Below, piece by piece: positions 42,756 to 61,953 of a DNA stretch of 61,953 bases. This DNA is from Candidatus Bathyarchaeia archaeon. GTDB taxonomy: Archaea > Thermoproteota > Bathyarchaeia > Bathyarchaeales > Bathycorpusculaceae. Location: the NCBI GenBank assembly GCA_049970895.1, contig JBMFMB010000007.1, positions 1 to 61,953 of the forward strand, in the 5' to 3' direction. A model generated the notes under the pieces. It did no database searches, was not told the origin of the DNA, and saw only the letters and a program-made list of their open reading frames with translations. The stretch's first letter is position 1; every line of letters begins with the position of its first letter. The translations under genes and the position numbers were made by a program.

Positions 42756-43247
42756 TCATGGAAGAATAGACATCAAAAGATTCACAATTCTCCCAGCTGC
42801 AGCCTCAACTTCCCCAGATAAGCCTTCACCAAAATCTGTTTCTTTAGGCTCTATCAAAAGTAGGGCTATTTTTGCCTCTAATGTTTTGGAGAGGTAGTCA
42901 CAAAAAACCCTAAGCGGAAGTATATGCGTGGAAATGGCTGGAAAAACCTTGAGGTGTTCGGGCTTTACAAGCCTACAGTTGCCTGGCTCCAAACCCATAA
43001 CTGCAGCGTCAATGAGCAGAACATGTGTTGGCCTAAAGTCCAAAATCTGTTGAATAAAACTTTCAGGAACAGTTTCGCATTCAATCAGCAAAACTTTTTC
43101 AGAGACTTTTCCATGCAAGTCATGGACGATCTTCACGCCGACAAAGTCGTCCATGCGGATGGGGTTGCCAACGCCAGCGACAACAACCCTTTCCGCGTTA
43201 GAGAGCCATTCCCTAAGCTTTTTCTCGAAGGAACCTTCCACAGACAA
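42756..43247 (-). CDS. hycI: Hydrogenase maturation protease (HycI-like)
   Basis: GVGN..RMDD..G, ETVPE, IDA, STH.LPL. Confidence 0.88.
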   Translation of the reverse strand: MSVEGSFEKKLREWLSNAERVVVAGVGNPIRMDDFVGVKIVHDLHGKVSEKVLLIECETVPESFIQQILDFRPTHVLLIDAAVMGLEPGNCRLVKPEHLKVFPAISTHILPLRVFCDYLSKTLEAKIALLLIEPKETDFGEGLSGEVEAAAGRIVNLLMSILP

Positions 43248-43294
43248 AAGGGTTTCTCCAAAAATGAAATGGGAAAATGGGAGCTGTTTAGGGT

Positions 43295-44749: not shown

Positions 44750-45729
44750 TCGCGGATCACCTTCCTCCTCAAAATTGAGGCTGGCAAAGCATACATGTAG
44801 AAGGTTCCAACGGGATCCTTAATCTGGTCGATTAGCTTTTCAACCTCTTCTTCAGTGTATTTCTCCTTCTCCTCCTCCAACCCAAGTATCGAAGCCAAAG
44901 CACTAATCATGGCGGCGCCCTGCTCCGGAACGTTGGGACATGGACCACCACAACCAGTGCATGGCATGTCAACCTTCAAGCATCTGGCGCCACAACCACC
45001 CCTCGTGGCTGGACCCATGCAGAGGATTCCCTGTTCCAATAGGCACCTTTCAGGGTCGGGAGCCTTCTCGTAAACGCGGTATATCCGCGATATCTTCTTG
45101 TTCTCCTTCTTCTTCGGACACTCGTCACAAACAGATTTTAAAGGCGCCAAAACAGAGCCTTTTGGCGGAAGCTCGCCCTTAGCTATGGCTTCTAGGGCGA
45201 AGAGTGTGCGCTCCACCGCTGGCGGGCAGCCGGGAACATAATAGTCAACGTCCACCGTCTGGTCGAGAGTTCTCACAGTGTCGTAGAATTCTGGAATTTC
45301 CAATTCGCCCTCCTTAACATGAACTTTTGGCTGTGGGGAAACCTTGTTGGGATTATCCGTCGAAAAGGTTTGAGCATAGACTTTTTCGAAGATTTCCTCC
45401 TTGTTGTGCAGATTAGCCAGCCCTGGAACACCACCAAGATGGGCACATGCACCATAAGCTACGAGAATCTTCGACTTTTGCCTTAGAAGCTTTGCCATGT
45501 GCTCTTGTTCGCTGTTTCGGATTCCACCATTAAAGAAGCAAACGTCAATGTATTTGTCAGGCATGTTTTCCACGTCTTTATATTTTATGTCCATGGCTAC
45601 GGGCCAAAACACTATATCTGCGATTTGCACTACATCCAAGATTTTCTCGTTAATGTCCAAAACAGCGATTTCACATCCGCCGCAGCTTGCAGCCCAGTAG
45701 AAGGCGAATTTCAATTTTTGCTTTGCCAT
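44746..45729 (-). CDS. mvhG: [NiFe] hydrogenase group 3c small subunit
   Basis: SCGGC, GACA, PGCPP, CMGPAT..GC, PCTGC. Confidence 0.92.
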   Translation of the reverse strand: MAKQKLKFAFYWAASCGGCEIAVLDINEKILDVVQIADIVFWPVAMDIKYKDVENMPDKYIDVCFFNGGIRNSEQEHMAKLLRQKSKILVAYGACAHLGGVPGLANLHNKEEIFEKVYAQTFSTDNPNKVSPQPKVHVKEGELEIPEFYDTVRTLDQTVDVDYYVPGCPPAVERTLFALEAIAKGELPPKGSVLAPLKSVCDECPKKKENKKISRIYRVYEKAPDPERCLLEQGILCMGPATRGGCGARCLKVDMPCTGCGGPCPNVPEQGAAMISALASILGLEEEKEKYTEEEVEKLIDQIKDPVGTFYMYALPASILRRKVIRE

Positions 45730-45740
45730 GACCCATCTCC

Positions 45741-46619
45741 TCATTTAATCTGGTTTAATAATTCTGTTGGCTTAACTCTAAGCTCGTTTAGGGCTAATTC
45801 CTCTGGCGGTAAGCCCATGGCTAAGCCTAAAAGCTGTGGGTAGTGGAGAATTGGCATGTTGAATTTTTCGTTGAAGGCTCTCTCTATGCGGGGCTGGTTT
45901 AGGTCGAACATTATATGGCAGAAGGGACAAACAGTTATAAGCGCTTGGGCGCCAACAGCCCTAACATGGTCAAGCTTTTCCTTAGCCATCTGGAAGGGCA
46001 CGTCCTCATTAACGCCTATTATTGGGTTGCCGCAGCACTCGGTTTCATCCATATAGTCTAGGCATTCGGCGCCAGTCAGCCTAATCAGCTCCTTAAGGGT
46101 TGTTGGGTTTTCAGGGTCATCCCGTCCCACATACTTGCGGGGTCTTAGAACATGGCATCCGCTGTGCTGGGCTACGCGAATACCAGCCAAAGGCTTTGTT
46201 ACAGTATCCTTTATCTTCTCGTATCCAACGTCCTCTGAAAGCACATAGATTAGGTGTTTAACTTCTATTGTGCCCTTAAACTCCATGCCAACCTCTTTCA
46301 AATAGCCGTTAATCTTCTCGCGAAGCTTCTTATCCTCTTTTAACAGTTTATTGGTTTCGTTTAGGCTGCAGAAGCACCCGTTACAGAGGGTCATTATTGG
46401 TAAGCCAACTTTTTCAGCTATGCATAGGTTTCTCGCCGCCAACGTCAACATCAATTCGTGGTTTATAACGTCCATTGGGTAGCCACAACAGTTGTATTCT
46501 GGCATTTCCACAATCTCAACGCCAAGCTTGGCGAGGACTTTTCTGGCGGATATCTCGTAGCTTGAAAGCCTATATGGAATTACACAGCCGGGAAACAACA
46601 AATATTTTGGGTTGCTCAT
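45741..46619 (-). CDS. hdrB: Heterodisulfide reductase subunit B
   Basis: Two CCG domains (NCCG..CNGC; ECCG..CPFC). Confidence 0.92.
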   Translation of the reverse strand: MSNPKYLLFPGCVIPYRLSSYEISARKVLAKLGVEIVEMPEYNCCGYPMDVINHELMLTLAARNLCIAEKVGLPIMTLCNGCFCSLNETNKLLKEDKKLREKINGYLKEVGMEFKGTIEVKHLIYVLSEDVGYEKIKDTVTKPLAGIRVAQHSGCHVLRPRKYVGRDDPENPTTLKELIRLTGAECLDYMDETECCGNPIIGVNEDVPFQMAKEKLDHVRAVGAQALITVCPFCHIMFDLNQPRIERAFNEKFNMPILHYPQLLGLAMGLPPEELALNELRVKPTELLNQIK

Positions 46620-47185
46620 TTGCTCTCCACCTTCGCAAAAGTTTGAACCTTCTCAAGCAAGCCTGCCGAACCAGTAACCTCAAAAATTTTCATAACTTCC
46701 TTCACGTTTGGCTTTGGCAGTGGCGGCAGTCCCTGCTCAACCCTTTTCTGAAGCCTTGACTCTGGAATCTCGTAGACGAAACCGCTTTTCATGAGGTTTG
46801 TGGCTAACTCCTTGTAAACTAGTGGAAGAATGTTTTTATCTGCAACAGCCATGTTCCGCAAAACGCGCACTATGCCGGCAATTTCAACACCTTGGGGGCA
46901 ATGGTCCACACACGTGAAGCATGATGAGCATAGCCACAAGGCTTTATCCAGCAGAAGCCTATCCTTCAAGCCTAATTGGACCATGCGGGCTATTCTGCGT
47001 GGTCTGTAAAACTCGCTGAATCTTGCTATGGGGCAGTCAGCCGTGCATGTGCCACATTGGAAGCAGACCATCACCTTTTCTGCGCCGTGCATCTTGCTCA
47101 TTTTATACTTGAACCTGGGGTCAAGCTCCTCAGCCCTAATCACTGGAGGAACGTATTCGCGGGCTTCACTTTTTGTTTCGCTCAT
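46616..47185 (-). CDS. hdrC: Heterodisulfide reductase subunit C
   Basis: CFQCGTCTADCP and WLCSSCFTCVDHCP. Confidence 0.92.
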   Translation of the reverse strand: MSETKSEAREYVPPVIRAEELDPRFKYKMSKMHGAEKVMVCFQCGTCTADCPIARFSEFYRPRRIARMVQLGLKDRLLLDKALWLCSSCFTCVDHCPQGVEIAGIVRVLRNMAVADKNILPLVYKELATNLMKSGFVYEIPESRLQKRVEQGLPPLPKPNVKEVMKIFEVTGSAGLLEKVQTFAKVESK

Positions 47186-47619
47186 TTCCTCTCCTCCATT
47201 TTCAACGGGTTCGGACCAAGCTTCTTAATCTGTTCAACCATGTCTCGGACAACGGCTGCAAATTTGTCTCCCTCGCTGGCGGAGACCCATTCCAGCCGCA
47301 CACGTTCGGGTTCTATCCCAAAATCTTTAAGCACCCTCTTTAATAGCGTTACCCTCCTCAAAGCCTTAAAATTACCACTAAGGTAATGGCAGTCGGATGG
47401 AAGGTGGCAACCAGCCAACAAAACACCGTCAGCTCCATTTTTCAGGGCTTCTAGTATGAAGGCTGGGTCTATTCTTCCACTACACATGACGCGGATAACA
47501 CGGATGTTTGGCGGGTATTGGATTCGGCTTACACCAGCCAAGTCTGCACCAGCATAGGCACACCAGTTGCATAGGAAACCAACAATCTTTGGTTCAAAAT
47601 CCTTTTGGGCTTCGCTCAT
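47182..47619 (-). CDS. mvhD: MvhD [2Fe-2S] subunit
   Basis: FLCNWCAYAGAD, RVMCSGR, GCH..DCHY. Confidence 0.94.
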   Translation of the reverse strand: MSEAQKDFEPKIVGFLCNWCAYAGADLAGVSRIQYPPNIRVIRVMCSGRIDPAFILEALKNGADGVLLAGCHLPSDCHYLSGNFKALRRVTLLKRVLKDFGIEPERVRLEWVSASEGDKFAAVVRDMVEQIKKLGPNPLKMEERK

Positions 47620-50600
47620 TTGGCAGCCACCTCCATCTCCTTCAAGACAGCCCTAACCTGGGCAAGAATCTCCTCAGTTGTGAAGTGTCCAAGGGTTATG
47701 GCTTTTGTTGGGCATGCTGTTCCGCAGACTCCGCAGCCCTTGCATAAGGCTTCAATCACGTGGGCAACCACTTTGCCATCTTTCTCCTTCATCTCAATCG
47801 CGCTGTAGGGGCATAGAAATTCACAGATTCTGCATCCACTACATAAATCTTCATCTACACTTGCCACGATTCCTTCCATCTCAAGGGCTTTCTTCGAAAG
47901 TATTGTGGCTGCTCTTGCTGCGGCTGCACATGCTTGGGAAATGCTCTCCTCAATATATTTTGGCGAGTGAGCCATTCCGCATAGGAAGACGCCGTCCGTC
48001 TGGAAGTCCACTGGGCGAAGCTTCATGTGCGCCTCCAAGAAGAAGCCATCCTTTGTCAATGGCACTTTTAGCATTTCGGCTATGCGCTTATTGTCCGGGT
48101 TCGGGATGGTGGCAGCACTTAAAATGACGTAGTCTGGCTCCAACTGAACCTCTTGCTTTAATACCGGCTCGTAGAAGGAGACTTTAAGCTTTCCGCCTTC
48201 ATTTGTGACTTTTGGCTTGCGTTCGTCTGAATAGTTTATGAAGATGACACCTTTTGCTGCTGCCTCCCGATAGTACTCCTCCTTAAAGCCGTAACTCCTA
48301 ACATCCTTGTAAAGGACGTAAACATCAGCGTCTGGGCTAAGCTCCTTAATTTTCAGCGCGTTTTTGATGGCTTGCCCACAGCATATGCGCGCACAGTTGG
48401 GGCGCTCCTCGTTCCTTGCGCCAACGCATTGAATCATAATAACCTTTTTGGCTTTGAACTCGCCTTTGGCAATTTTCTCCTCCAACTCGTGCTGGGTCAT
48501 GACTCTGGGGTCTTCGCCATACAAGTATTCTTTTGGCTTATACTCAACGGCACCAGTTGCAACAATAACTACGCCATGCTCCACCAGTTTTTCCTCGCCG
48601 TTGCTCAGCCTTATTTTTGATTTGAAGTTGCCGATGAAACCGCTTACCTCCACAACCTCCGCGCCTAAATAAACGTGGATAAGCTTGTTTTCCATAACAG
48701 CCTTAACAAGCCTTTTCAAGTGCACCTGTGGGTCTTCGCCCTCAAGCAAGTAATAGATTTTCCTTAAGTGTCCGCCAAGCTCTTTTTCGCGTTCAACAAG
48801 GTGAACCTCAAAGCCTTGATTGGCTAATTCTAGTGCTGCGGTCATTCCTGAGACCCCGCCACCAATTACAAGTCCTGCTGGAGTGACATTGACTGTTGGG
48901 TTTTTCAACGGTTTTAGAAGCCTCGCCTTAGCGACGACGGAGCGGACGAGGTCTTTTGCTTTTTCTGTTGCCGCGTCCGGCTCGTGCATATGAACCCAGC
49001 TGCACTGGTCTCGGATGTTTGCCATCTCAAAGAGGTATGGGTTTAGGCCAGCCTCTCGGAGGGTTTCTCTGAAAAGCGGTTCATGGGTTCTTGGTGTGCA
49101 TGAAGCTACAACAACACGGTTTAGGTTGTACTCCTTAATCTTCTCCCTAATCCGCTTCTGGGTGTCATCCGAACAAGTGTAAAGGTTGTCCTCGGCATAA
49201 ACAACATTTGGAAGTTTTTTGGCATATTCTACAACTTCTGGAACCCGCACTATTCCGCCAATGTTTATGCCACAGTGGCATATGAAAACGCCTATGCGGG
49301 GCTCTTCTTGGCTAACGTCCCGTTCTGGCGGATACTCCTTCACAGTTATGAGCTTGCCACGTTCTGGGGCTATTATTGCCATGGCTTTCGCCGCGGCGCC
49401 ACTTGCTTGAGCAACACTTTCCGGAATATCCTTAGGCGAGCTGAAGGCTCCGCAAACGTATATGCCTGGCTTTGAGGTTTCCAGCGGTGTGAAGGTATTG
49501 GTTTCGCAGAAGCGGTACTTGTTGAGCTTTATGCCAAAAGCCTTGGCTAGTTTTTCCACGTCCTTTGGCGGCTGCATTCCAGTGGAGAGCACAACCATGT
49601 CGAACTCCTCAACCCATGGAGTTTCATCCTCTCCAACATAGTGCACAAGCAAGTTGCCGGTCGCTGGGTCTTCGGTTATGCTAGCAACCCTTGAACGCAC
49701 AAAACGGATGCCATACTCCTCCTGAGCCCGCTTATAATAGGCGTCAAACTCCTTCCCATAAGCCCTAATATCCATATAGAAAATTGTGCAGTCCAACTTT
49801 GTTGGCACGTGTTCTTTGGCTATAATGGCTTCCTTAATGCTGTACATGCAACAAGCAGCAGAACAATAATTGTTCCCAAGCTGAGCATCCCGAGAACCAA
49901 CACACTGAATAAAGGCAATTTTTCGTGGAATCTCACCGTCAGAAGGCCTCAAAACAATTCCGCCGTAGGGTCCAGAAGCGCTTAGTATGCGTTCGAACTC
50001 TATGCTTGTCACAACATTTGCATAACGTCCGTAACCGTACTCGCTCTTAAGCCGCGCATCAAAGGGTTCAAAACCGGGAGCCAAAATCACGGCGCCAACA
50101 TTTAGAACGATTTCGCTGTCTTTTTGGTCGTATTCAACGGCGTTCGCCTTACAAACCTCTTGGCATGTTCTACAACCAATGCATTTTTCGCGGTCTATTT
50201 TGAAGCGAAGTGGAACCGCTTGCGGAAATTCGACGTAGACGGCGCTTCTGTCTGTCAAGCCCTTATTGTAGGTGTCTATGGCTTCAACGGGGCATTTTTG
50301 TGCACAAAGCCCGCAACCATTACATTTTTCCTCGTTTATGTAGCGGCTTCTTTTTCGAATCTTCACTTCGAAGTTTCCAGCCTCGCCGCTTAAGCCCAAT
50401 ACTTCGCTGTTCGTAATCAAGGAAATGTTGGGATGCCTCCCAGCAGCAACAAGCTTAGGAGCCAAAATACACATTGAACAGTCATTTGTTGGGAAAGTCT
50501 TGTCCAATTGAGCCATAACACCGCCGATGCTGGGCGACTGGTCAACCATGTACACTTTAAAGCCTGAATCAGCCAAGTCTAAGGCTGCCTGTATTCCAGC

Positions 50601-50648
50601 AACGCCTCCGCCTACAACAAGAACTGCTCCTACTTTTCCTTCAGCCAT
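47616..50648 (-). CDS. hdrA: Large heterodisulfide reductase subunit A with two FAD modules
   Basis: GGGVAG...DKTFPTNDC, ferredoxin insert, QCVGSR, internal CHCG/SCTPR/DQCSWVH block, second GGGVSG, C-terminal 2x[4Fe-4S]. Confidence 0.92.
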   Translation of the reverse strand: MAEGKVGAVLVVGGGVAGIQAALDLADSGFKVYMVDQSPSIGGVMAQLDKTFPTNDCSMCILAPKLVAAGRHPNISLITNSEVLGLSGEAGNFEVKIRKRSRYINEEKCNGCGLCAQKCPVEAIDTYNKGLTDRSAVYVEFPQAVPLRFKIDREKCIGCRTCQEVCKANAVEYDQKDSEIVLNVGAVILAPGFEPFDARLKSEYGYGRYANVVTSIEFERILSASGPYGGIVLRPSDGEIPRKIAFIQCVGSRDAQLGNNYCSAACCMYSIKEAIIAKEHVPTKLDCTIFYMDIRAYGKEFDAYYKRAQEEYGIRFVRSRVASITEDPATGNLLVHYVGEDETPWVEEFDMVVLSTGMQPPKDVEKLAKAFGIKLNKYRFCETNTFTPLETSKPGIYVCGAFSSPKDIPESVAQASGAAAKAMAIIAPERGKLITVKEYPPERDVSQEEPRIGVFICHCGINIGGIVRVPEVVEYAKKLPNVVYAEDNLYTCSDDTQKRIREKIKEYNLNRVVVASCTPRTHEPLFRETLREAGLNPYLFEMANIRDQCSWVHMHEPDAATEKAKDLVRSVVAKARLLKPLKNPTVNVTPAGLVIGGGVSGMTAALELANQGFEVHLVEREKELGGHLRKIYYLLEGEDPQVHLKRLVKAVMENKLIHVYLGAEVVEVSGFIGNFKSKIRLSNGEEKLVEHGVVIVATGAVEYKPKEYLYGEDPRVMTQHELEEKIAKGEFKAKKVIMIQCVGARNEERPNCARICCGQAIKNALKIKELSPDADVYVLYKDVRSYGFKEEYYREAAAKGVIFINYSDERKPKVTNEGGKLKVSFYEPVLKQEVQLEPDYVILSAATIPNPDNKRIAEMLKVPLTKDGFFLEAHMKLRPVDFQTDGVFLCGMAHSPKYIEESISQACAAAARAATILSKKALEMEGIVASVDEDLCSGCRICEFLCPYSAIEMKEKDGKVVAHVIEALCKGCGVCGTACPTKAITLGHFTTEEILAQVRAVLKEMEVAAK

Positions 50649-50651
50649 CTT

Positions 50652-51404
50652 TTATCGCACCTCTAAAGCCTTATACAACGGCGTGTAACCTTCAACATGG
50701 TCCAAGGCTATCATACCCTTCCGTCGCATGTTAGTCATGTGCCTCAAAACGGCAGAGGGCTTAATCCCAAGAATTTGGGCTAACTCCTTAACAGAGCGTG
50801 GCTTAACCCTTGTCAAGTAGTGAATTTTATAGCGGATGAACTCAGCCCTAACAACGTCGTCCAATAAGGCGTTAAACTCTTCTTCTGATATTTTCACGCC
50901 GTAAGCGTTCATGAATTCTGTTAGCTCTTCTTCTCTCCCCAGTAAAACGCGGAGTCTAAAGGCTGAGGCTGCCTCCTTAGCCGCTGTGAGGTTAGCTAAA
51001 AGCTCCTCCTTCCCAAGTGGAGAGTTTCCAAGCTTCCAAACTTCTTCTGAAAACTCCTTGGCATAGTGGCTGAAGCCTTTATACTCCAAAGGTGAAACTA
51101 GAAGAAGCTTCAACCTTTCAGGCTCAAGTCCAGCCAAAGCCAACAGTTTCTTCAACATTTTAACTGCTCGTTCGGCGTGGAGGTTTCCGTCGACAAAGTG
51201 GCAGTCTGGAGGCTTGCATCCGACAAGTAAGATGCCATCCGCCCCATTAATGAAGGTTTCAAGAACAAGTGCCGGGTCCATCCTTCCAACACACATAACA
51301 CGGATAATATTAACGTTGTATGGAACACGCATCTCCTCCTCACAGAAAGCCCAGTTGCACATGAAACAAACAATTTTTGGCGGGTTAGAGGATTCCATTT
51401 CCAT
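50652..51404 (-). CDS. MvhD-like [2Fe-2S] domain fused to a C-terminal winged helix
   Basis: FMCNW, RVMCVGR, GCKPPDCHF; tail PRSVKELAQILGIKPSAVLRHMTNMRRKGMI. Confidence 0.82.
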   Translation of the reverse strand: MEMESSNPPKIVCFMCNWAFCEEEMRVPYNVNIIRVMCVGRMDPALVLETFINGADGILLVGCKPPDCHFVDGNLHAERAVKMLKKLLALAGLEPERLKLLLVSPLEYKGFSHYAKEFSEEVWKLGNSPLGKEELLANLTAAKEAASAFRLRVLLGREEELTEFMNAYGVKISEEEFNALLDDVVRAEFIRYKIHYLTRVKPRSVKELAQILGIKPSAVLRHMTNMRRKGMIALDHVEGYTPLYKALEVR

Positions 51405-51405
51405 T

Positions 51406-53130
51406 TCACCTCTCCAAGGCTGTCAAAACCATGGTCAGAATCTGCTCATTGGAAAGCTTCTTCATGGTTATGGCTTGTTCTGGGCATCTTGCAGCACATA
51501 GGCCGCAGCCCTTGCAAAGCTCCTCGTTTACTTGGGCTACACCCTTCTCATTCTTTTTGATGGCGCCAACTGGGCATATTACTGCGCAGACGTTGCAGCC
51601 AACACACTTGCCCTCATCAACAACAGCCTTGTCACCCTCGCACAAGCCCATGCTTGCAAGGCACTCGGCACACGGTCCACATCCCAGACAGCGGAAAGCC
51701 TCAAATCTGGCTTGGCGCTTCAGCTTTTCAAGGTATTCCCTTGCCTCCTCAAAGCTTAGGTGGGGCTTCTCTATTGGCGCATCATATCTGCGCTCCTTCT
51801 TTTCCAAAAGCCGCCAGTCCTTAACCCAGGTGGTCTCCTCAATCTTCTCCTCTTCCCTATCCTTTCGCAGATCCTCGCCCCTCAAATAACGGTGTATGGA
51901 AACGGCTGCGCGTTTTCCAGCGCCAACAGCCTCAATGATGCTTGCCGGACCAGTGGCAACATCCCCACCGGCGAAAACTCCTGGAATGTTGGTTTCAAGG
52001 GTTAGTGGGTCAACCTGCAATGGTGGTCCCCGCTTTTCCTTGCTTATAAGTTCTGGTGGCAAGACTGATGTTTCAACCATCTGTCCCAAGGCTGGAATAA
52101 CCATGTCCACCTCATACTGGTGTTCTGAGAAGGCTATTGGGATTGGGCGTCTCCTTCCGCTCTCGTCTGGCTCACCGAGGCGCATTCTTAGGCACTCGAC
52201 AGCCTTAACCCTTCCATTCTCGCCAATAATTTGCTTTGGAGCCACCAAGAAATAGAACTTTATCCCGTCCTTCTCGGCTAGCTCCACCTCGTGGGGAAGG
52301 GCTGGCATCTCTTCGCGAGAACGCCTATAAAGAATCATAACCTCCTTGGCACCCAGCTTTTTGACGGTTCTTGCAGCGTCGATGGCTGTGTTGCCACCGC
52401 CAATGACGGCTACCCTTTCGCCAATGATGATTTTCTTTCCAAGGGCAATAGCCCTCAAAAAGTCAACAGCGTTTATCACGCCCGCTAAGTCTTCGCCTGG
52501 CACGTTTAACTTCATGCCCAATTGTGTGCCGATAGCGAAGAAGATTGCCTTATAACCGTCCCTTTTGAGGCTTTCGATGGTTATGTCCTTGCCGAACTCC
52601 ACGCCGGTTTTGATTTTAACGCCTATATCCTTGATGTACGCGATTTCATTTGCAACAACAAACTTTTCCAGTCGGAAGTCTGGTATGCAGTAGCGCATCA
52701 TGCCGCCAGGTTCAGCCATCCGCTCAAAAACAGTGACGGGATAACCCAACTTTGCAAGTTCATAAGCCGCCGTCAAACCGGCTGGTCCAGCACCAATTAT
52801 GGCAACCTTTTCGCTATACTTTTTGGGCACTGGTTCAGCAACAACTCGCCCCTGCTCGCGTTCAATGTCGGCTACAAGCCTTTTCAAAGCGCGTATGGCA
52901 ACTGCTTGGTCAAGGTTTACACGGGCGCATGCATCCTCACATGGGCTGAAGCAGACCCTTCCACAGATGGCTGGGAAGGGCATGTCCCGCCTTATAACCT
53001 CAACGGCTTCCTTGAACTTCCCCCTTTGGATGAGAGCCACATAAGCTTGAACGTTGACATGCGCTGGACATGTTGCTCGACAAGGAGGTAGTTTCCTAAC
53101 TTCCTGTAAAGGTTTTTCTGTCAAAGGCAT
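51406..53130 (-). CDS. NAD(P)H-dependent flavin/Fe-S oxidoreductase (GltD/NfnB/SudA-like) with an HdrA-type ferredoxin tail
   Basis: PPC..TCP, CGRVC..PCE..C, GAGPAG, GGGNTAIDAAR, YRR, FAGGD, terminal 2x[4Fe-4S]. Confidence 0.88.
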   Translation of the reverse strand: MPLTEKPLQEVRKLPPCRATCPAHVNVQAYVALIQRGKFKEAVEVIRRDMPFPAICGRVCFSPCEDACARVNLDQAVAIRALKRLVADIEREQGRVVAEPVPKKYSEKVAIIGAGPAGLTAAYELAKLGYPVTVFERMAEPGGMMRYCIPDFRLEKFVVANEIAYIKDIGVKIKTGVEFGKDITIESLKRDGYKAIFFAIGTQLGMKLNVPGEDLAGVINAVDFLRAIALGKKIIIGERVAVIGGGNTAIDAARTVKKLGAKEVMILYRRSREEMPALPHEVELAEKDGIKFYFLVAPKQIIGENGRVKAVECLRMRLGEPDESGRRRPIPIAFSEHQYEVDMVIPALGQMVETSVLPPELISKEKRGPPLQVDPLTLETNIPGVFAGGDVATGPASIIEAVGAGKRAAVSIHRYLRGEDLRKDREEEKIEETTWVKDWRLLEKKERRYDAPIEKPHLSFEEAREYLEKLKRQARFEAFRCLGCGPCAECLASMGLCEGDKAVVDEGKCVGCNVCAVICPVGAIKKNEKGVAQVNEELCKGCGLCAARCPEQAITMKKLSNEQILTMVLTALER

Positions 53131-53245
53131 CAGCCTTCTTGGAAGTATATTTGAATGTTAAACCAGATATATTAAGCCATCTAAACCAAGCTTAACACAA
53201 AATTAACATAAAAATTTGGACAGAAAAAGAGGGGAAATTGAGGGT

Positions 53246-53836
53246 TTATTCGCGAAGCCTTCCCTCAAGCTTGCTAACCCACTTGTTGTATTCCCTTGAG
53301 CTTAGAAGGCTTTTGAGTTCATCTTCAAGTGTCAGGGAATTTTTGGGCTTGATTTCGATTATCCAGCCCTCGCCATATGGGTCTTCATTTACCAGGTAGG
53401 GCTTATCCTTCAACTGTTCATTAACCTTAACAATCTTGCCGCTTACAGGTGAGTATAAGTCAAACATAAACATCCAGGTTTCAGCCACACCGAAGGGCTC
53501 CATTTTGGCTATTTCCTTCCCAACTGGTTCAGTTATTATGTTTGCAATTCCTTTGAGGTGTCTTTGAGCGTAGTCTGAAACACCCACACGGATGTTTCCT
53601 TCAGGGGTTATTTGAGCCCAAGTGTGCTTCGGCGTGTACAGCAGTTGCTCTGGAATTGCCAGAAGCTCTTCACGTTTGGCGGTTGGGATTCCCTCAGCCC
53701 TCATCAACTCTTCTAGGCGCAGCCTTATGGCTTCTGAGACGAACTCAGATATGCTCCTGTAACGCCCTGTTTTGAGGATTCTCTCGATTTCCTTTATCAG
53801 CTCCTGCCTTATACTTACGGTCTTCCATTCGGACAT
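53246..53836 (-). CDS. Ribbon-helix-helix domain fused to a GcvH-like domain lacking the lipoyl lysine
   Basis: WKTVSI..ELI..I...GRYRSISEFVSEAIR; YTPKHTW, RVGVSDYAQ, LYSPVSG, VNEDPYGEGW; VAETWMF in place of VESVKA. Confidence 0.85.
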   Translation of the reverse strand: MSEWKTVSIRQELIKEIERILKTGRYRSISEFVSEAIRLRLEELMRAEGIPTAKREELLAIPEQLLYTPKHTWAQITPEGNIRVGVSDYAQRHLKGIANIITEPVGKEIAKMEPFGVAETWMFMFDLYSPVSGKIVKVNEQLKDKPYLVNEDPYGEGWIIEIKPKNSLTLEDELKSLLSSREYNKWVSKLEGRLRE

Positions 53837-53962
53837 TTCACATCAACCTCCTTTACATCTGCGTGATATATAGAACAAAGCGAAAGATATATATCTAACG
53901 TAAATATAAAATATAGAATAAATAAATATGTCAAAGTAAATACTATAAATAGAGGAGTCCCT

Positions 53963-55036
53963 TTGGAAATTAGAAAAGTTCAAAGAGTAGGACGCTCAAC
54001 AATGACAGTTTCTCTTCCAAACAAGTGGATTAAAGAAAATGGCATAAAGCCACGGGACATCCTATTCATAATACCGGAAAGAGATGGCTCCCTAAAAATA
54101 ATGCCTAGGCACATAGCCCAGAGGGAAGAAGCCGAAGAATACATTGTGAATGCTGATGCATGTAACGAGCCAGGAATGCTGGAAAGAATTATCGTTGGAA
54201 GCTATATTCTGGGACGCGATGTTATACGGGTAATTTCCGCAAGCCGCATAGGCAAAAACCACATAGACGAAGTGCGGAGAATAGTTCAAAAGCTTATTGG
54301 GCTTGGAATTCTTGAAGAGACGTCGAAAAGCATACTTTTACAATGCTCCATAGACTCCACAAAGTTTAAGCTTGACATGCTCATCCGGAGGCTTGCCCTC
54401 ATAGCCTCAACAATACTTTCTGAGGCAATGCAGGGCTTTAAGGAGAAGAAATACGACATTGTTGAGGAAGCCATCGCACGTGAAGACGAGGCGGACAAAA
54501 TATACTATTTGGCGGTGCGTCTCCTCTTATCTGCGCAGGTGAAGCCTGCCATAGCCGAGGAGGTTGGCATGGTGGACGTGCTCTTCATACCTGCTGCTAG
54601 GCTGATTCTGCAGTATTTGGAGTTGGTTGCCGACTATTCTGAGGACCTTGCCAGAGAAGTTCTTGAAATGGAGATTTATAGGAATAGGCTTCCAGAAGAT
54701 GTTGTTGACAGAATCTTCCACCTAAGCGAGCTAACCCAGACAATTCTCCAGAAGTCTATTGAGTGCATTTTCACTAGGGATTTGAAGGCTGCAAACCGGC
54801 TTCTGGAGATGAGAAAAGTACTTGAAGTAGACTCTAACAGGCTTATGCGGGAAGCTCCAGAAATCCCATATATTCGCTCCATTCTCTCGTGTTTAAGCAA
54901 GATTGCAGACAAGGGTGCAACAATAGCTGAAATAGCCATAAACAGAGCCCTAGAAGACCCGAGTAAATATGTTGGCGATGTTGTCCGAGCAGTTAAGCAC
55001 GTTAGAACATTGCCCTTGACCATTGGAAAGAAATAG
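53963..55036 (+). CDS. AbrB-PhoU family regulator
   Basis: RKVQRVGRSTMTVSLPNKW; PhoU repeats EDEADKIY, LELVAD, LSKIAD. Confidence 0.88.
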   Translation: MEIRKVQRVGRSTMTVSLPNKWIKENGIKPRDILFIIPERDGSLKIMPRHIAQREEAEEYIVNADACNEPGMLERIIVGSYILGRDVIRVISASRIGKNHIDEVRRIVQKLIGLGILEETSKSILLQCSIDSTKFKLDMLIRRLALIASTILSEAMQGFKEKKYDIVEEAIAREDEADKIYYLAVRLLLSAQVKPAIAEEVGMVDVLFIPAARLILQYLELVADYSEDLAREVLEMEIYRNRLPEDVVDRIFHLSELTQTILQKSIECIFTRDLKAANRLLEMRKVLEVDSNRLMREAPEIPYIRSILSCLSKIADKGATIAEIAINRALEDPSKYVGDVVRAVKHVRTLPLTIGKK

Positions 55037-55093
55037 CTTTCAAAAAAATAATGCATTGTTCAGCTATGCTTAAAGTAACAAAGTTAAAATAGT

Positions 55094-55591
55094 ATGAAAT
55101 GTAAAATATTCACAGAGGAAGACGTCATGAGTGATGATTTTGAAGAAGCCTTAAGGAATATAGACGTCTTCTGTAAAGTTTTAGCCAAGAAACTGGTGGA
55201 AAGCCTTAAGGATGAAGAACCTAAGGATGAAAACCCCCTAGAACCCATGGATAAGCTTCTAAGAAAGAAGTATGTTTTTGAGGAGAGATTCGAGGAGAGT
55301 CCAACAGCAAAACACTTTATTCCGTTGCCCCATGTTGAAGAGCCCCTAATAGACATTTTTGAAGATGAAAATTACGTTAAGGTTTTAATGCAGTGCCGCT
55401 GCAGAGACCAGAGGGTAACCCTCCACAAATTTGATGATGGCTTACAAATATGCATGGAGGACACTTGTTGGAAGCTTAACCTACCCGTTGATGAGCTACA
55501 AGTGGAAAACATAGTTATGAAGTGCAATAACAATAAGGCTTTAGAGGTTGAGATTCCAAAACTGAAAACAGCAGTGAATTATAGGGATTAA
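55094..55591 (+). CDS. Hsp20/alpha-crystallin-like hypothetical protein
   Basis: EPLIDIFEDE.YVKVL, LPV, NN.ALEVEIPK; alternative start at 55127. Confidence 0.65.
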   Translation: MKCKIFTEEDVMSDDFEEALRNIDVFCKVLAKKLVESLKDEEPKDENPLEPMDKLLRKKYVFEERFEESPTAKHFIPLPHVEEPLIDIFEDENYVKVLMQCRCRDQRVTLHKFDDGLQICMEDTCWKLNLPVDELQVENIVMKCNNNKALEVEIPKLKTAVNYRD

Positions 55592-55602: not shown

Positions 55603-55800
55603 TTATACTGTTACGCCTTTCTGCCTAATCCTCCTTCGGCAAGCCTCCTCCTCAGCACATTTTGCACACGTATATATAACGTCAAACTCGCTCCTGCTTG
55701 GATTTTCAGGATTAACAATGAAGACGAAGCATTCCTCGCCCTTTTTAATGGTGCCGCCGCAACAGAAGCATTTATGCTCTTTAAGGGCTGTAACTTTCAT
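55603..55800 (-). CDS. Small zinc-finger protein
   Basis: HKCFCCGGTIKKGE and YTCAKC. Confidence 0.7.
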   Translation of the reverse strand: MKVTALKEHKCFCCGGTIKKGEECFVFIVNPENPSRSEFDVIYTCAKCAEEEACRRRIRQKGVTV

Positions 55801-56172: not shown

Positions 56173-57048
56173 TCAACCTATTTTCTCCAATACTCTGTCT
56201 ATTTTCACCTTGTGGAAATCTAAAGCTAACTCTTTTGGCTCTACTCCTAGGCTTAAGCTTAATAGTTCGGCGTAGTGGATTATTGGAAGGTTATATTCTT
56301 CCTTGTATGTTGATTTTATTAGCATTTGTCCAAGGTCAAGGGTCAAAAAGCAGAAGGGACAAAGCGTTGATATGCAGTCTGCTCCGGCGTTGTGGGCGTT
56401 TACAATTTTGTCCCTTGCTATGGCCAGTGCCACATCGTCAGCATAGCCCCTTAAAAGGCCTCCGCAGCATCGCAGCTTGTTCTTATATGGTATGCTTTTA
56501 GCTCCCAAAGCTTCGATAAGGTTGTCGAATGTGCGGGGGCGTTCTGGGTCGTCGAAGCGTAACAGTTCGCTTGGCCTCAGCAAGTGGCATCCGGAGAATG
56601 CTGCCACCTTAAGCTTGTCTAGGGGTTTGACGACGTTTTGTTTTAAGTTGTTTAAGCCAACGTCGTTCATGAGCACTTGTAGATAGTGCCTAACCTCTTT
56701 TGTGCCCTTGAATTCCTTTCCAGCGTTGGATAGGATTTTGTTCACTTTTTCGCGTAGTTTTGGCTTTTCTTTTAGTAGGTGGTTGGCTATTGCTAGGGAT
56801 TCGAAGCATCCAGTGCAGAGCGTAACTATGTTTAGGTCTGCTTCTTCTGCTAGGCAGATGTTGTAGGCTGCTATTGCTAGGCTTGTTTCTAAGTCTATTG
56901 ATTGTAAGGGTGGCGGTGCGCAGCAAGTCATGCCTTCCAAGTCTACTAGTTGTATTCCAAGTTTTGTTAGGGCTTTTCTCGCTGCAAGCTCGTAATGAGG
57001 TTGTCGGGCTGGTATTGTGCAGCCTAAAAATAGTGCGTAGCTTGTCAT
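56173..57048 (-). CDS. hdrB: Heterodisulfide reductase subunit B (second copy)
   Basis: FLGC, TCCA..CTGC, SGCH, RCCG..CPFC. Confidence 0.92.
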   Translation of the reverse strand: MTSYALFLGCTIPARQPHYELAARKALTKLGIQLVDLEGMTCCAPPPLQSIDLETSLAIAAYNICLAEEADLNIVTLCTGCFESLAIANHLLKEKPKLREKVNKILSNAGKEFKGTKEVRHYLQVLMNDVGLNNLKQNVVKPLDKLKVAAFSGCHLLRPSELLRFDDPERPRTFDNLIEALGAKSIPYKNKLRCCGGLLRGYADDVALAIARDKIVNAHNAGADCISTLCPFCFLTLDLGQMLIKSTYKEEYNLPIIHYAELLSLSLGVEPKELALDFHKVKIDRVLEKIG

Positions 57049-57551
57049 TGGGTTGCACCCTCCTTCTTAAACATGATTTTTTCGAAGCCCGTCGCGGCGA
57101 GAATCTTTTTTAGGGCTTCTATGCCTGTTGGCTTTAGCGGTGGCAAGCCATAGTCGGCTCTCTTCTTTTCTAGAAATTTTGATATTGGAACTATGCGTCC
57201 TTCGCTTAGGAGTCCAGCTGCGAATTCTGTGTAAATGGCTGGTATGTTGCCTTCGCGTATGGCGATGTTCCTTAAGGCATATATTATGTCTGCGACTTCG
57301 ACCTTTTGGGGGCATCGTTCTTGACAGTTGTAGCATGAGGCGCAAAGCCATATGGCATCGCCTTTAAGAACCTCTTCCCTTTGTCCCAGTAATGCGAGCC
57401 TTATGATTTGGCGTGGATTGTAGCGTTCTGTTGTTCTTGCGACGGGGCATGTGCTGGCGCATGTTCCGCACTGGTAGCAGTGGGTTATTGTTTCTCCGCC
57501 TAGCCGGCTGGTTATCTCCCTTGTAAAGTCGAGGGGTTTTTCTTCACTCAT
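57045..57551 (-). CDS. hdrC: Heterodisulfide reductase subunit C (second copy)
   Basis: CYQCGTCASTCP, WLCASCYNCQERCP. Confidence 0.92.
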   Translation of the reverse strand: MSEEKPLDFTREITSRLGGETITHCYQCGTCASTCPVARTTERYNPRQIIRLALLGQREEVLKGDAIWLCASCYNCQERCPQKVEVADIIYALRNIAIREGNIPAIYTEFAAGLLSEGRIVPISKFLEKKRADYGLPPLKPTGIEALKKILAATGFEKIMFKKEGATQ

Positions 57552-57587
57552 CTTTCGCCTCTCCCCACATTGGTGTTTCCGCTTCAG

Positions 57588-59999
57588 CTAAGCTAGTTGG
57601 AGCGAGCCTAGCCTTTCCACCTTTTCAGTCATGGTTTTGGCGGCTTCTGCGAATTTGTGACCTTCGATGAAGACTAGGTTGAACATTTCAAGCCTTTCTG
57701 GTTCTATGCCATAAGCCCCGAGCAGAGCCTTTGCCAAATCCACTTTTTGTTTGGCTTTTTGGCTTCCAACCTCGTAGTGGCATCCGTCGGGCTTGCACCC
57801 TACAACCATAACGCCTTGGGCTCCAGCCTTGAAAGCCTCCAGAATATGTTGGACTTGGATTACGCCAGTGCATGGAACTCGCAACACTCTTACATTGGCT
57901 GGGTAGCTCATCATAGCCATACCAGAAGAGTCTACGGCTGCGTGACCGCACTCTGAACAGCTGAATGCCAGCACCAGCGGTTTCGAGGTGCCATTAACTG
58001 ACAGTAACGCCTTTATTTGAGCTGTGATTTGGTTTGGCTTTAGGTGGCGGAGTTCTATGGCACCAACTGGGCATGTTCCAACACAGACACCGCAGCCTTC
58101 ACATATGAGTTCATAAACCTTAGCCGCAAAGTGCCCATTTCCTTTAGGTTCTAGGGTTATGGCGCCATAGGGGCATATTACTGGGCAGAACTGGCAGTTT
58201 CCACAATAATCTTGATTGACGACAGCCACCTTCAAGTCCTTAACAATTTTGCCATTCATGAGGAATTTGGCCGCCTTAACAGCTGCTGAATGGGCGTGAA
58301 GCGATGTTGTGGGGGCGTCTTTTGGGAAGACAGCGCCTCCACAGATGAATATGCCCCTCCGCTTTGTTTCGGTCGGCCGCAGTTTAGCGTTGTATTCTTT
58401 GAAGAAGCCGTCTTGGTCCAGTTCCAAGCCGAGAATTTGCGCCAGCTCCTTTGCGTCTTCTGATGGGACCATGGCTGTGGCTAAAACCACTAGGTCTGCT
58501 TCCAGCTCCAGAAGTCTTCTTAAAAGCTCGTCTTCAACCTCCACAACAAGCATGTTTGTGGCTGGGTCGTGGATTATTTCTGATGGTCTTCCCTTAACGA
58601 ATTTTACGCCCATCTCTCTTGCTCTCTCATAATAGTATTCGTGTTCCCGCCCAGTTGTGCGAATGTCTATGTAGCATATGGTCACGTCAGCATCTGGGAA
58701 AGCCTCCTTAATCATTGTGGCATGCTTCAGCGAAATCATGCAGCAAATACTCGAACAGTAGGGGTTCCAACGCCTGTCTCTTGAACCAACACACTGCACA
58801 AACACTATTCGTTTTGCTGGTTTCATGTCGGAAGGCTTGACTGGCACACCGCCCGTGGGGCCGAAGGCGTCAAGCATCCTTGCCAATTCCAAGTGGGTTA
58901 TCACGTCTGGATACTCGCCATAATGGTACTCTTTTATCACACTTGGGTCATATTCTCGGAATCCAGTAGCCACAATAATGCTGCCAACGTTAAGCGTAAC
59001 ATGCTCGGGTTTTTGGTCAAGCTCAATGGCCTTTGTTGGGCAGACTTCCACGCATTTGGCGCATTCGTGGAACTTGCAAGCTTTGGCGTCTATGGCATAG
59101 GCTGGCGGATAAACAAGGGGCTTGTTTATGTATATGGCTTTCCGCTTTGTGAGTTTAGCGTTATACTCATCTGGCACCTCAACTGGGCAGACGCTTGTGC
59201 ACAAGTCACATGCAACACACTTTTTCTCATTAACATAGCGGGGTTTACGCTCAACTGTTACATGGAAGTTGCCTGGTCCACCCTCAACCTTTACGACTTT
59301 GGCGTTTGTCAAAACGTTTAGGTTTGGAATTTCCGAAAAACCAGAACGGTAAACACATTTCCTCGAAGTTTGGGTTACAGCCTTCAAGTCTGTTGTTGGG
59401 GATTGGATGCATATAGCACAGTCATCTGTTGGGAAGAAGCGAACAGCCTTAGCCGCCAATCCTCCCAAGAAGGGCTCCTTCTCAACTAAGTAGACTTGAA
59501 AGCCCATATCCGCCAAGTCTTCGGCTGCCTGCATTCCAGCTAATCCGCCGCCGATGACGAGGACGGATTTGACAGCTGGAAACTCCGCCTTCTCGATGGG
59601 TTCTTGAAGTTTAGCCTTTTCAATGGCTGCTAGAAGCATTGCCTTAGCCTTTTCAGTAGCCTCTAGGGGCGTGTCCCTGTGGGGCCATGCACAATGGTCT
59701 TTGAGGTCTATAACTTCCACTAAGTAGGGGTTAAGCCCAGCCTCCTCCACAGCCTTTGCTACGGTCACTTCGCTGATTTTTGGAATGACTTCGGCCACAA
59801 CAACACGGTTTATCTTCTTAGCTTTAACAGCGTCCACTATGGTTTTTAGGCCCTCGCCACGCCAGAACTCGCTTCCCCGAGCTACAAGGGCGACTCCTGG
59901 AACATCCTTCACAAATTTTGTTAGGGCCTCGAAGTCTATGATTTTTGCTATTTGCCCGCCACAGTCGGATAGGAAGACTCCAACTTTTGCCTCTTCCAT
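57588..59999 (-). CDS. hdrA: HdrA-MvhD fusion
   Basis: GGGLAG, FFPTDDC, ferredoxin insert, QCVGSRD, CSSICC; C-terminal MvhD (RVPCTG, GCKPDGCHY). Confidence 0.9.
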   Translation of the reverse strand: MEEAKVGVFLSDCGGQIAKIIDFEALTKFVKDVPGVALVARGSEFWRGEGLKTIVDAVKAKKINRVVVAEVIPKISEVTVAKAVEEAGLNPYLVEVIDLKDHCAWPHRDTPLEATEKAKAMLLAAIEKAKLQEPIEKAEFPAVKSVLVIGGGLAGMQAAEDLADMGFQVYLVEKEPFLGGLAAKAVRFFPTDDCAICIQSPTTDLKAVTQTSRKCVYRSGFSEIPNLNVLTNAKVVKVEGGPGNFHVTVERKPRYVNEKKCVACDLCTSVCPVEVPDEYNAKLTKRKAIYINKPLVYPPAYAIDAKACKFHECAKCVEVCPTKAIELDQKPEHVTLNVGSIIVATGFREYDPSVIKEYHYGEYPDVITHLELARMLDAFGPTGGVPVKPSDMKPAKRIVFVQCVGSRDRRWNPYCSSICCMISLKHATMIKEAFPDADVTICYIDIRTTGREHEYYYERAREMGVKFVKGRPSEIIHDPATNMLVVEVEDELLRRLLELEADLVVLATAMVPSEDAKELAQILGLELDQDGFFKEYNAKLRPTETKRRGIFICGGAVFPKDAPTTSLHAHSAAVKAAKFLMNGKIVKDLKVAVVNQDYCGNCQFCPVICPYGAITLEPKGNGHFAAKVYELICEGCGVCVGTCPVGAIELRHLKPNQITAQIKALLSVNGTSKPLVLAFSCSECGHAAVDSSGMAMMSYPANVRVLRVPCTGVIQVQHILEAFKAGAQGVMVVGCKPDGCHYEVGSQKAKQKVDLAKALLGAYGIEPERLEMFNLVFIEGHKFAEAAKTMTEKVERLGSLQLA

Positions 60000-60027
60000 G
60001 GCTTTCACCTTCGCCTTCACTTTCCTT

Positions 60028-61485
60028 TTACCTTTTGATTGTTTGGATGAGCCTTTTCTCGCTGTCATAAATTTCCACCTCCAAGGGCATTTGACCCACT
60101 GCAAAATGGGTTGCACACGCAAAACAAGGGTCATAGGCTCTGAAGGCCATTTCAATCATGTTTAGTATGCCGTCTGTAACCCTTCCCTTCTTGATTAAGC
60201 CTTTAGCCGCATCCCTAATTGACATGCAAATGCCTGGGACATTATGTGTCGTAGCCACAATCAGGTTTACTTTTTTGGCAAGGGCGTTCTCATCCAACTG
60301 GTAATGGTGAATAAGTGTTCCTCTGGCGGCTTCAACTATGCCTACGCCTTCGCCTGGCTTGCCAGGCTTGTTTCGGACGTTTTTGCTTGTTATCTCTGGG
60401 TCTGTCACGAGTTCTAGGGCGCGTTCAGCAGCATACAACAATTCAATAAGCCTTGCCCAATGATAAGCCAAAGTGTTGTGGACTGGCTTTCCGCCCAGTG
60501 TTGCGTACATGCGCTCATATTCTACTTGGGCGAGTGGTGTTGCCATTCCGTCGGCCGCATTGAGCCTCCCAAGTGGGCCAACACGGTAGACGCCATTTTC
60601 CGCTCCGTCAACGAAGCCTTTCCAGCCAACTTTCTTCAAGTATGGAAGCTTAACATAGGTCCATGGTTCCACGCGTTCTTCTATAACGTCCAAGTATTCT
60701 TTCGGAGAGAATTTTACAAACTCCCGCCCGTTTGGGTCTACCACACGCACATTTCCGTCGTAGAAGTTGACTTTGTTGTTTTTGTCCACCAAGCCCATGT
60801 AGTAGGTTTTAAGCGTGTAAGCATCGCTTTTAATCAGGTCCATATAAGCCGTGTTTTTCAGCACTATGTTGTCGAAAAGCTTCAGCGAGAACTTGGCGAA
60901 TTCAAGGCAACTTCTTACCATACGCTCAATTTCTCGGCGTTCCTCCCCAGAAATTGGTCTTGCAAATCCGCCTGGGATGCCAGCGCTTACTGGATGGGTT
61001 GCCTTTCCGCCTAAAATTTCAGTTATTTTTTGGCCGTAGGCTCTATGCTTTATTACTTCCTTGCCTATTTCCAAGCCAGCTTTTTCAATAACCCCTAAAA
61101 CGTTGCGTTTTTCTGGTGGCGCATCCGGTCCAACAACAAAGTCTGGTCCGCCCAAATAGTAGAAGTGTAGTGTATGGTCGTAAATGAAGTAGCCACAGTA
61201 CATGAGTTCGCGGAGTTTTTTGGCTGGTTCTGGTGGTTCAACGTTGAAGGCTACGTCTAGGGCTTTGGCGCTTGCCATGTGGTGGGCCACTGGGCAGACT
61301 CCGCATATGCGAGGCGTTATTATAGGTAGGTCTTCGGCTCTACGGCCTTCGCAGAATTTTTCAAAGCCTCTGAGTTCTGGAACTTGGAAGTAGGCTTCGT
61401 CCACGTCGCCTTCCGCGTTTAAGAATATGGTTATTTTTCCGTGGCCCTCAAGCCTTGTTATTGGGTTTATAACTATCTCTTTCAT
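60028..61485 (-). CDS. mvhA: [NiFe] hydrogenase group 3c large subunit (second copy)
   Basis: TRLEGH, RICGVC, DPCFACATH. Confidence 0.93.
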   Translation of the reverse strand: MKEIVINPITRLEGHGKITIFLNAEGDVDEAYFQVPELRGFEKFCEGRRAEDLPIITPRICGVCPVAHHMASAKALDVAFNVEPPEPAKKLRELMYCGYFIYDHTLHFYYLGGPDFVVGPDAPPEKRNVLGVIEKAGLEIGKEVIKHRAYGQKITEILGGKATHPVSAGIPGGFARPISGEERREIERMVRSCLEFAKFSLKLFDNIVLKNTAYMDLIKSDAYTLKTYYMGLVDKNNKVNFYDGNVRVVDPNGREFVKFSPKEYLDVIEERVEPWTYVKLPYLKKVGWKGFVDGAENGVYRVGPLGRLNAADGMATPLAQVEYERMYATLGGKPVHNTLAYHWARLIELLYAAERALELVTDPEITSKNVRNKPGKPGEGVGIVEAARGTLIHHYQLDENALAKKVNLIVATTHNVPGICMSIRDAAKGLIKKGRVTDGILNMIEMAFRAYDPCFACATHFAVGQMPLEVEIYDSEKRLIQTIKR

Positions 61486-61953
61486 TTGCGGATCACCCTC
61501 CTTCTCAGAATCGAGTTAGCCAAAGAAAACTTGTAGAAGGTCCCAACTGGGTCGACGACTTGCGCTATGACTTTTGGGTCTGTGGCTATTGAGGCGAAGG
61601 CGCTTATCATGGCTGCCCCTTGGTCTGCCACTCGGGGTGCTGGTCCACCGCATCCAGTGCATGGTATATTTGCCTTCAAGCATTGGGCGCCGCATCCGCT
61701 ACGGGTGGCTGGACCCATGCATATTACGCCTTGATCCAAGAAGCAAGTTTTGAAGTCGTCGTTTATCTCGTAGATCCGCTTCACCTGGGTGATTTTTCTA
61801 TCTTTCTTCTCCCTTGAACACTCGTCGCAGACAGACTTATTGAAGAGGAGGTTGGCGCCTTTGGGTGGAAGTTTGCCGCTTAAAATGGCTTCTAGGGCGT
61901 CAATAACCCTTGGAACTGGGGGTGGACAGCCAGAAATGAAGTAGTCAACGTCG
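61482..61953 (-). CDS. mvhG: MvhG small subunit (second copy), 5'-truncated by the window edge
   Basis: SGCPP, VCDEC, CFLDQG..CMGPAT, PCTGC. Confidence 0.88.
   Translation of the reverse strand, partial: DVDYFISGCPPPVPRVIDALEAILSGKLPPKGANLLFNKSVCDECSREKKDRKITQVKRIYEINDDFKTCFLDQGVICMGPATRSGCGAQCLKANIPCTGCGGPAPRVADQGAAMISAFASIATDPKVIAQVVDPVGTFYKFSLANSILRRRVIRK

Follow-up and report, generated by a model that had tools for sequence, protein, structure and literature searches.

A ribbon-helix-helix protein fused to a lysine-less H-protein fold, a likely local regulator of hydrogenase and Hdr operons in Bathyarchaeia

We identified a fusion gene on the minus strand (53246..53836) of a 61,953-nucleotide stretch of DNA from a Candidatus Bathyarchaeia archaeon (contig JBMFMB010000007.1; hereafter referred to as the window). 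Its one open frame of 196 aa joins a ribbon-helix-helix (RHH) head to a GcvH-like domain that lacks the lipoyl lysine. We directly observed the domain fusion, the loss of the lysine and of the acidic surface, the conserved genomic position and two promoter motifs that track in opposite ways. A preliminary description of the locus had proposed a non-lipoylatable H-fold carried on a transcription-factor head and tied to hydrogenase/Hdr genes; this reading is supported by an invariant methionine at the lysine site, the adjoining hdr operon and a candidate operator that tracks the RHH. Comparison of promoter sequences makes it somewhat probable that the protein is a local regulator that would bind 7-base repeats (heptads) spaced 11 bases apart, with activation of the neighbouring hydrogenase/Hdr operons and autorepression as the predicted outcome.

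Both domains were recognized by sequence and by structure. When the N-terminus was scanned alone, Pfam RHH_1 matched residues 6-43 at its curated cut-off (20.5 bits, E = 0.00046), and GCV_H matched residues 65-188 of the fusion protein (E = 2.6e-30). The AlphaFold model (pLDDT 83.9) matched H-proteins with a Z of 21.7 and an rmsd of 1.1 over 128 residues, and its residues 1-50 matched ParD2, NikR, PutA-RHH and Omega with middling scores (Z 5.1-5.9). Sequence (Pfam RHH_1) and fold thus both showed the strand-helix-helix arrangement of an RHH, confirming the N-terminal RHH (residues 1-48; 53693..53836, minus strand) and the complete H-protein fold (residues 61-188; 53273..53656, minus strand) that had been described. 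Alignment to solved H-proteins placed Met122 at the lipoyl-lysine position, with its codon at 53471-53473 as claimed earlier. The former lipoyl hairpin (residues 119-126; 53459..53482, minus strand) is now aromatic and hydrophobic, and the protein has His-Thr-Trp where H-proteins conserve His-Glu-Trp. It contains no cysteine at all, which argues against the disulfide sensing suggested in the preliminary description.

Scoring of the lysine site across homologues, which that description had proposed, returned methionine rather than lysine throughout. Met122 was present in the query, in all 120 of the best homologues listed and in 79 of 79 loci, and E119, T120, W121, M122, F123, F125 and D126 were present in 121 out of 121 sequences (the best 120 homologues plus the query). 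The 52 fusion proteins encoded at these loci all lack Lys at the hairpin site. RHH-less copies with an intact hairpin persisted in several genomes, and some families had tandem pairs whose first copy carried a different, still aromatic hairpin. The genome of origin (97% complete) also encodes a canonical GcvH with the lysine on contig C2, together with GcvPA/PB, GcvT and one LplA, so the fusion gene is not required as an H-protein.

The best 120 homologues were 82-98% identical to the fusion protein and, where named, came nearly all from Bathyarchaeia. Across 401 sampled genomes of the class, the source's order was the only one with listed full-length matches; within it, the fusion was found in 58 out of 201 sampled genomes. 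To look for family members beyond the order, we fetched 20 of the next-best matches in the class; 17 had a gene call, and all 17 had the hairpin Lys. A quick tree, which omitted 14 near-identical rows of the family and 54 of the 99 outgroup rows and in which two Lys-less family members were mislabelled as outgroup, grouped the Lys-less fusions to one side of a branch with an SH-aLRT of 95, and the H-like gene of locus L101 fell on the other side. An atlas search returned nothing beyond the fusion family's own clusters, and a literature search that covered mostly open-access papers found no description of this protein.

The fusion gene lies 115 bases upstream of a same-strand hdr operon (GltD-like/mvhD-wHTH/hdrA/mvhD/hdrC/hdrB/mvhG/mvhA). 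This hdr/mvh operon 1, which also includes hycI (42756..53130, minus strand), is its likely target. The divergent partner is an AbrB/MazE-PhoU regulator (AbrB-PhoU; 53963..55036, plus strand), and both positions agreed with the preliminary description. Further along, hdr/mvh operon 2 (mvhG partial, mvhA, hdrA-mvhD, hdrC, hdrB; 56173..61952, minus strand) has its promoter outside the window, and lplA lies at 39194-40018. Among the 79 loci with a gene call (out of 80 fetched), AbrB-PhoU was the divergent upstream neighbour in 71; the GltD-like gene heading the hdr/mvh operon followed the fusion in 62, bearing out the expected hdr linkage, and TauE followed in 13, often leading into a Hox-type hydrogenase. 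Fusion labels that appear twice at a locus in this comparison stem from a shadow ORF. An AbrB-PhoU orthologue was found in 55 out of 58 fusion-carrying genomes. The earlier suggestion that the fusion acts with MvhD-wHTH fared less well: 39 of the 58 carriers had MvhD-wHTH and 19 had no match, while the fusion was missing from 26 out of 65 genomes with MvhD-wHTH. We rejected MvhD-wHTH as an obligate partner because co-occurrence was incomplete both ways.

Several neighbouring genes deserve mention in their own right. The MvhD plus winged-helix fusion of the window (50652-51404) is widespread in the order (65/201) and independent of the RHH fusion. A small DUF2061 membrane gene repeatedly stands between the two regulators (L044-L053 and others), and in another family the gene after the fusion is TauE; these neighbours hint at a sulfur-related link. 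Beside AbrB-PhoU, an Hsp20-like protein with several cysteines (55094-55591) recurs in 25 of 41 loci and a cysteine-rich small protein of 65 aa (55603-55800) in 16 of 41.

Promoter comparison revealed 7-base repeats of the form TRnnYYA, at an exact 11-base period, upstream of the fusion gene itself, of the hdr operon next to it and of further hydrogenase operons at these loci. Three heptads (53182..53210, minus strand) lie directly upstream of the inferred TATA box of hdr/mvh operon 1 (53168..53175, minus strand), which served as the alignment anchor, and constitute a candidate activator site. With a TATA box and a promoter motif of its own, the operon is probably transcribed separately from the fusion gene here. 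In the hdr promoter alignment, 51 out of 60 promoters were anchored on the TATA box and 48 distinct promoters were aligned. The end bases T and A of heptads 1 and 2 were found in 47-48 of these 48 promoters, and those of the third heptad in 48 (T) and 39 (A); the near-invariant ends fall at -35, -24 and -13. Two heptads with the same period (53860..53877, minus strand) lie just downstream of the fusion gene's own TATA box, forming a candidate autorepression site. A BRE-like purine run (plus strand) and a palindromic TATA-like element (53880..53895), both conserved alignment columns, are probably common to the two divergent genes. The second heptad of the fusion gene's promoter flanks a TATA-like spacer, so that it could in part represent a core promoter signal.

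A related arrangement was found in three genomes (G432, G469 and G471), in which an RHH 71% identical to that of the fusion is joined to DUF2096 instead (L097:5189-6064, L099:2987-3733 and L100). In all three, hdrA directly follows the RHH-DUF2096 gene and an intact or remnant AbrB-PhoU gene lies opposite it; none of the three has a full RHH-H-fold fusion. RHH-DUF2096 proteins form a family of their own, and the 120 matches listed carry PF23100, all with Ser at the strand position. Because DUF2096 replaces the H domain behind the same RHH, the RHH is the constant part and the C-terminal domain exchangeable. The shared RHH, the slot before hdrA and the heptad arrays described below give DUF2096 a first functional context; our literature search found no paper on this domain. 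In the genome of origin, DUF2096 was considered as an Hdr-linked gene and rejected, as its stand-alone copy follows rps13-rps4-rps11.

We trained a heptad matrix solely on the 48 hdr promoters and then applied it to held-out DNA. The hdr/mvh operon 1 promoter ranked best of 851 genome promoters, with close relatives of it in the training set. Held-out arrays were present just below the TATA box at all three RHH-DUF2096 promoters, with scores of 16.3-17.3. Scores above the 95th percentile of shuffles were obtained for 12 out of 16 mvhG, 5 out of 6 group-4 hydrogenase, 3 out of 3 hoxE and 14 out of 22 hsp20-like promoters, compared with about 4 out of 96 for other genes and 0 out of 6 for TauE. 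Heptad pairs also preceded mvhG of hdr/mvh operon 2 in relatives and on contig C40 of the source genome. The control specific to Hdr that had been proposed earlier was not supported, as the same heptads precede Hox-type and group-4 hydrogenase operons. In the window, the Hsp20-like gene with its weak array at 55049-55077 (55049..55591 together, plus strand) is a likely target, its name being an atlas lead only.

The heptads tracked the RHH. In Ser8 heads, the gene's own promoter had a heptad pair at period 11 in 78 out of 90 cases, against no more than 14 out of 90 at any of the periods 8-10 and 12-14. Where Arg or Lys replaces Ser8, such pairs occurred with 2 out of 27 heads, and about 5 of these 27 upstream regions may not be true promoters. 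Four fusion genomes with only distant AbrB-PhoU paralogues kept three-heptad arrays at both promoters (18.6-22.9), and three genomes with an AbrB-PhoU orthologue and no RHH match had no three-heptad array above 6.6. Strong arrays were absent from the hdr promoters of 20 loci without the fusion; the one exception elsewhere in these loci was L120, with an array scoring 17.7 before an unrelated gene. Thus, the heptads were kept without AbrB-PhoU or with the DUF2096 swap and were gone when Ser8 became Arg/Lys, and from this co-variation we predict that Ser8 on the recognition strand is the specificity residue. These loci come from related metagenome-assembled genomes, so the counts are not independent; the split between Ser and Arg/Lys largely follows family lines, the four genomes lacking AbrB-PhoU orthologues look like one lineage, and only the RHH-DUF2096 cases provide a contrast between families.

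The data did not support a heptad regulon spanning the genome. The third-ranked of the 851 promoters, on contig C15, precedes genes for an HdrA-like domain and ferredoxins, yet its heptads were unconserved in 19 out of 19 scored orthologues; with the failure of this trans candidate, the regulon is shown locally only. Across the window, the plain two-heptad pattern was not enriched (14 matches vs 9.75 by chance), and a sigma-70 promoter scan was set aside as unsuited to archaea. The C15 genes themselves form a three-gene unit (L245:2354-3411; G000 C15:30353-31410) encoding a stand-alone HdrA-like cysteine domain and two ferredoxin-like proteins, and 17 out of 21 genomes with its first gene also carry an RHH fusion. 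The array in L120 (L120:3230; G451, no RHH match) precedes an ATP-grasp-like gene beside a corrinoid-like gene, both named from sequence only.

The second motif, a 12-base palindrome with one mismatch (TAGTAWWTACTA, 53934..53945), followed AbrB-PhoU instead. It was the sole site with one or no mismatch in the 1.34-Mb genome, and sites at this threshold occurred in 13 out of 41 upstream regions, compared with 0.34 in shuffles. Where insertion or expansion had split the two promoters, a palindrome copy was found at both in 11 out of 13 loci. G339 and G430, which have no RHH match, kept the palindrome before AbrB-PhoU (G288 did not), and it was lost in the four fusion genomes whose AbrB-PhoU paralogues are 23-28% identical. 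As its presence follows AbrB-PhoU and not the RHH, we rejected it as the RHH operator; it most likely belongs to AbrB-PhoU, as a candidate operator. Its support is positional, since at two or fewer mismatches it was not enriched across the window (2 vs 5.3).

The preferred reading of these patterns is as follows. Each RHH dimer would take one pseudo-palindromic heptad, so that at 11-base spacing two or three dimers would be aligned on one face of the DNA. By position, heptads immediately above the hdr TATA box suggest activation, and heptads just below the TATA box of the fusion gene suggest repression. AbrB-PhoU likely binds the separate palindrome, and its control of both itself and the fusion gene would make up a cascade of two steps. 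For the H domain, a non-catalytic role in protein contact is most likely: the aromatic tip of its hairpin may touch an adjacent dimer or another protein and thereby gate DNA binding. We favour a contact role because W121-M122-F123 is invariant and hydrophobic, the protein has no cysteine or lysine arm, stand-alone copies are kept and the domain is replaceable.

The main rival to this protein-contact reading keeps the same DNA-binding role and makes the H domain a feedback sensor, docking on Hdr/Mvh or taking up a small ligand in the former lipoyl cleft and mimicking lipoyl-GcvH as a possible Hdr disulfide substrate. We regard it as possible, if rather doubtful. In its favour, a canonical gcvH paired with a pyridine-nucleotide oxidoreductase gene lies divergent from the second hdr operon in L109, L110 and L285; passages of PMC9723716 propose GcvH-HdrB interplay in Culexarchaeia, and passages of PMC7886697 describe the Hdr disulfide substrate in Bathyarchaeia as not known. 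A90, H93 and L94 in the helix beside the hairpin are strongly conserved in the fusion family, and some family members have a cysteine-rich tail. However, the fusion also heads Hox-type operons, 19 of the 58 carriers have no MvhD-wHTH match, DUF2096 can replace the H domain, and the protein has neither cysteine nor a lysine arm. We give slightly less credence to a de-lipoylated H-protein switch in which the aromatic hairpin would dock on Hdr/Mvh by mimicking lipoyl-GcvH as the missing Hdr disulfide substrate; docking would couple enzyme occupancy to RHH binding at the phased heptads, under an AbrB-PhoU tier and with an input domain swappable for DUF2096. As a separate observation, canonical gcvH pairs with a CoA-disulfide-reductase-like oxidoreductase, a possible L-protein substitute, at L001:124-1893, L109:8708-10476, L110:2088-3857 and L285:11616-13384.

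It is unlikely that the H domain is a dedicated partner of AbrB-PhoU, with both forming one regulatory complex. The high co-occurrence of the two genes in carriers (55/58) would fit such a complex, as would the Lys-less H genes without an intact RHH that adjoin AbrB-PhoU genes in L099 and L101, but their adjacency and common palindrome are enough to account for the co-occurrence. In addition, the intact fusion and its heptads persist in the four genomes with only distant paralogues, and in three genomes AbrB-PhoU is paired with RHH-DUF2096.

We consider it quite improbable that the domain is a decoy mimicking GcvH towards LplA, GcvP or GcvT and reporting lipoylation status, as had been proposed for lipoyl-protein partners. 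The H fold is complete, structural Glu119 and Gly133 are retained, and the genome encodes LplA, GcvP and GcvT. However, acidic residues conserved in GcvH are replaced in the fusion (for example, K70, T72 and K95-G96), and the net charge of the H domain is -2.3 (n = 41), compared with -11.2 (n = 21) for canonical GcvH of Bathyarchaeia. Passages of 10.64898/2026.10.01.755906 report an acidic surface as a main determinant of GcvH recognition by its ligase, and the loss of that surface makes a decoy unlikely. There is hardly any case for a functional H-protein of glycine cleavage, as the database name has it, or for an antitoxin of the ParD type: the GcvH name arose because the broad NCBIfam model NF002270 was passed (122.6 vs cut-off 117) though the equivalog TIGR00527 failed (102.9 vs 115.85), the match to ParD-type TIGR02606 was weak and below cut-off (20.4 vs 46.2), the lipoyl lysine is absent while a canonical GcvH stands on C2, and the neighbours in the loci examined were AbrB-PhoU and hdr/TauE genes, with no recurrent toxin-like gene.

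By membership criteria, the fusion falls outside GcvH, LbpA, NikR and ParD. It shares with GcvH (PF01597, TIGR00527) the whole fold, 34-39% identity and structural motifs, but has methionine in an aromatic hairpin, a lost acidic surface, an N-terminal RHH, a position away from gcvT/P and its own side of the tree. Like LbpA of sulfur-oxidising Hdr-like systems, it combines an H-like fold beside hdr genes with a surface less acidic than that of GcvH. The analogy with LbpA/sHdr drawn in the preliminary description nevertheless fails, since the strictly conserved lysine and usually two cysteines that parts of PMC6067878 ascribe to LbpA are both absent, and the fusion carries a DNA-binding head. 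GcvH-L (TIGR03077), GcvH_rel_desulf (NF045810) and Simiate/FAM206A likewise have a GcvH-derived fold in a role other than glycine cleavage, according to passages of PMC3859600; the fusion scored far below the cut-offs of the first two (47.1 vs 144.05 and 43.5 vs 150, respectively), and the parts of the descriptions compared name no RHH fusion for any of the three.

Among DNA-binding proteins, the fusion would work in the manner of NikR, as a one-component RHH regulator whose C-terminal domain is new. NikR is an RHH one-component regulator that is linked to nickel-hydrogenase genes and has a C-terminal metal-binding domain. The fusion likewise has an N-terminal RHH (Z 5.4 to apo-NikR) and a C-terminal domain proposed to be regulatory, but its C-terminus (residues 61-190) is an H-protein fold, it has no cysteine and its candidate operator consists of tandem heptads. 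The Omega repressor shares the RHH fold (Z 4.8-5.1), and the title of PDB 2bnw names direct heptad repeats; the candidate heptads of the fusion differ in lying 11 bases apart, and the fusion has a chromosomal metabolic context and an extra C-terminal domain.

Bathyarchaeia are abundant anaerobes for which our literature search found no described transcription regulon, and the locus supplies a named candidate regulator, two candidate operators and a predicted specificity residue, Ser8. It also offers a cofactor-carrier fold reused as a regulatory module. Recurring mis-annotation of the family as GcvH can inflate glycine-cleavage calls in metabolic reconstructions.

Other variants of the fold were encountered. 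A second, diverged RHH-H-fold paralogue in the genome of origin (L003:2-349; G000, C61) is cut by the end of its 592-base contig; its hairpin has an insertion and a Lys in ambiguous register, and in L049 and P0132 the second gene is a copy like it. A cysteine-rich C-terminal tail (four cysteines, a possible metal or Fe-S site) marks the Lys-less H-fold variants at L099:5021-5551, L103:238-723, L104:1730-2188, P0130 and P0149; they occur with or without an RHH, and the L104 copy is divergent from a group-4 hydrogenase operon. At L101:875-1378 (G397), between a distant AbrB-PhoU gene and hoxE/hoxF, lies a separate H-like gene that also lacks the Lys and whose hairpin has a long insertion; palindrome-like sites accompany it, and it may represent an independent or basal instance of this pairing. 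P0134, P0246, P0271 and P0142 contain further H-fold repeats or fusions, several without the hairpin Lys, including three copies joined to an FAD-oxidase/CCG enzyme, copies in tandem on a membrane anchor and a single copy that follows a long N-terminal region. Judging from these, the H-fold seems to have been reused repeatedly. Elsewhere in the window, two divergent EF-2/EF-G-type paralogues stand back to back (4505-6715 and 6935-9154).
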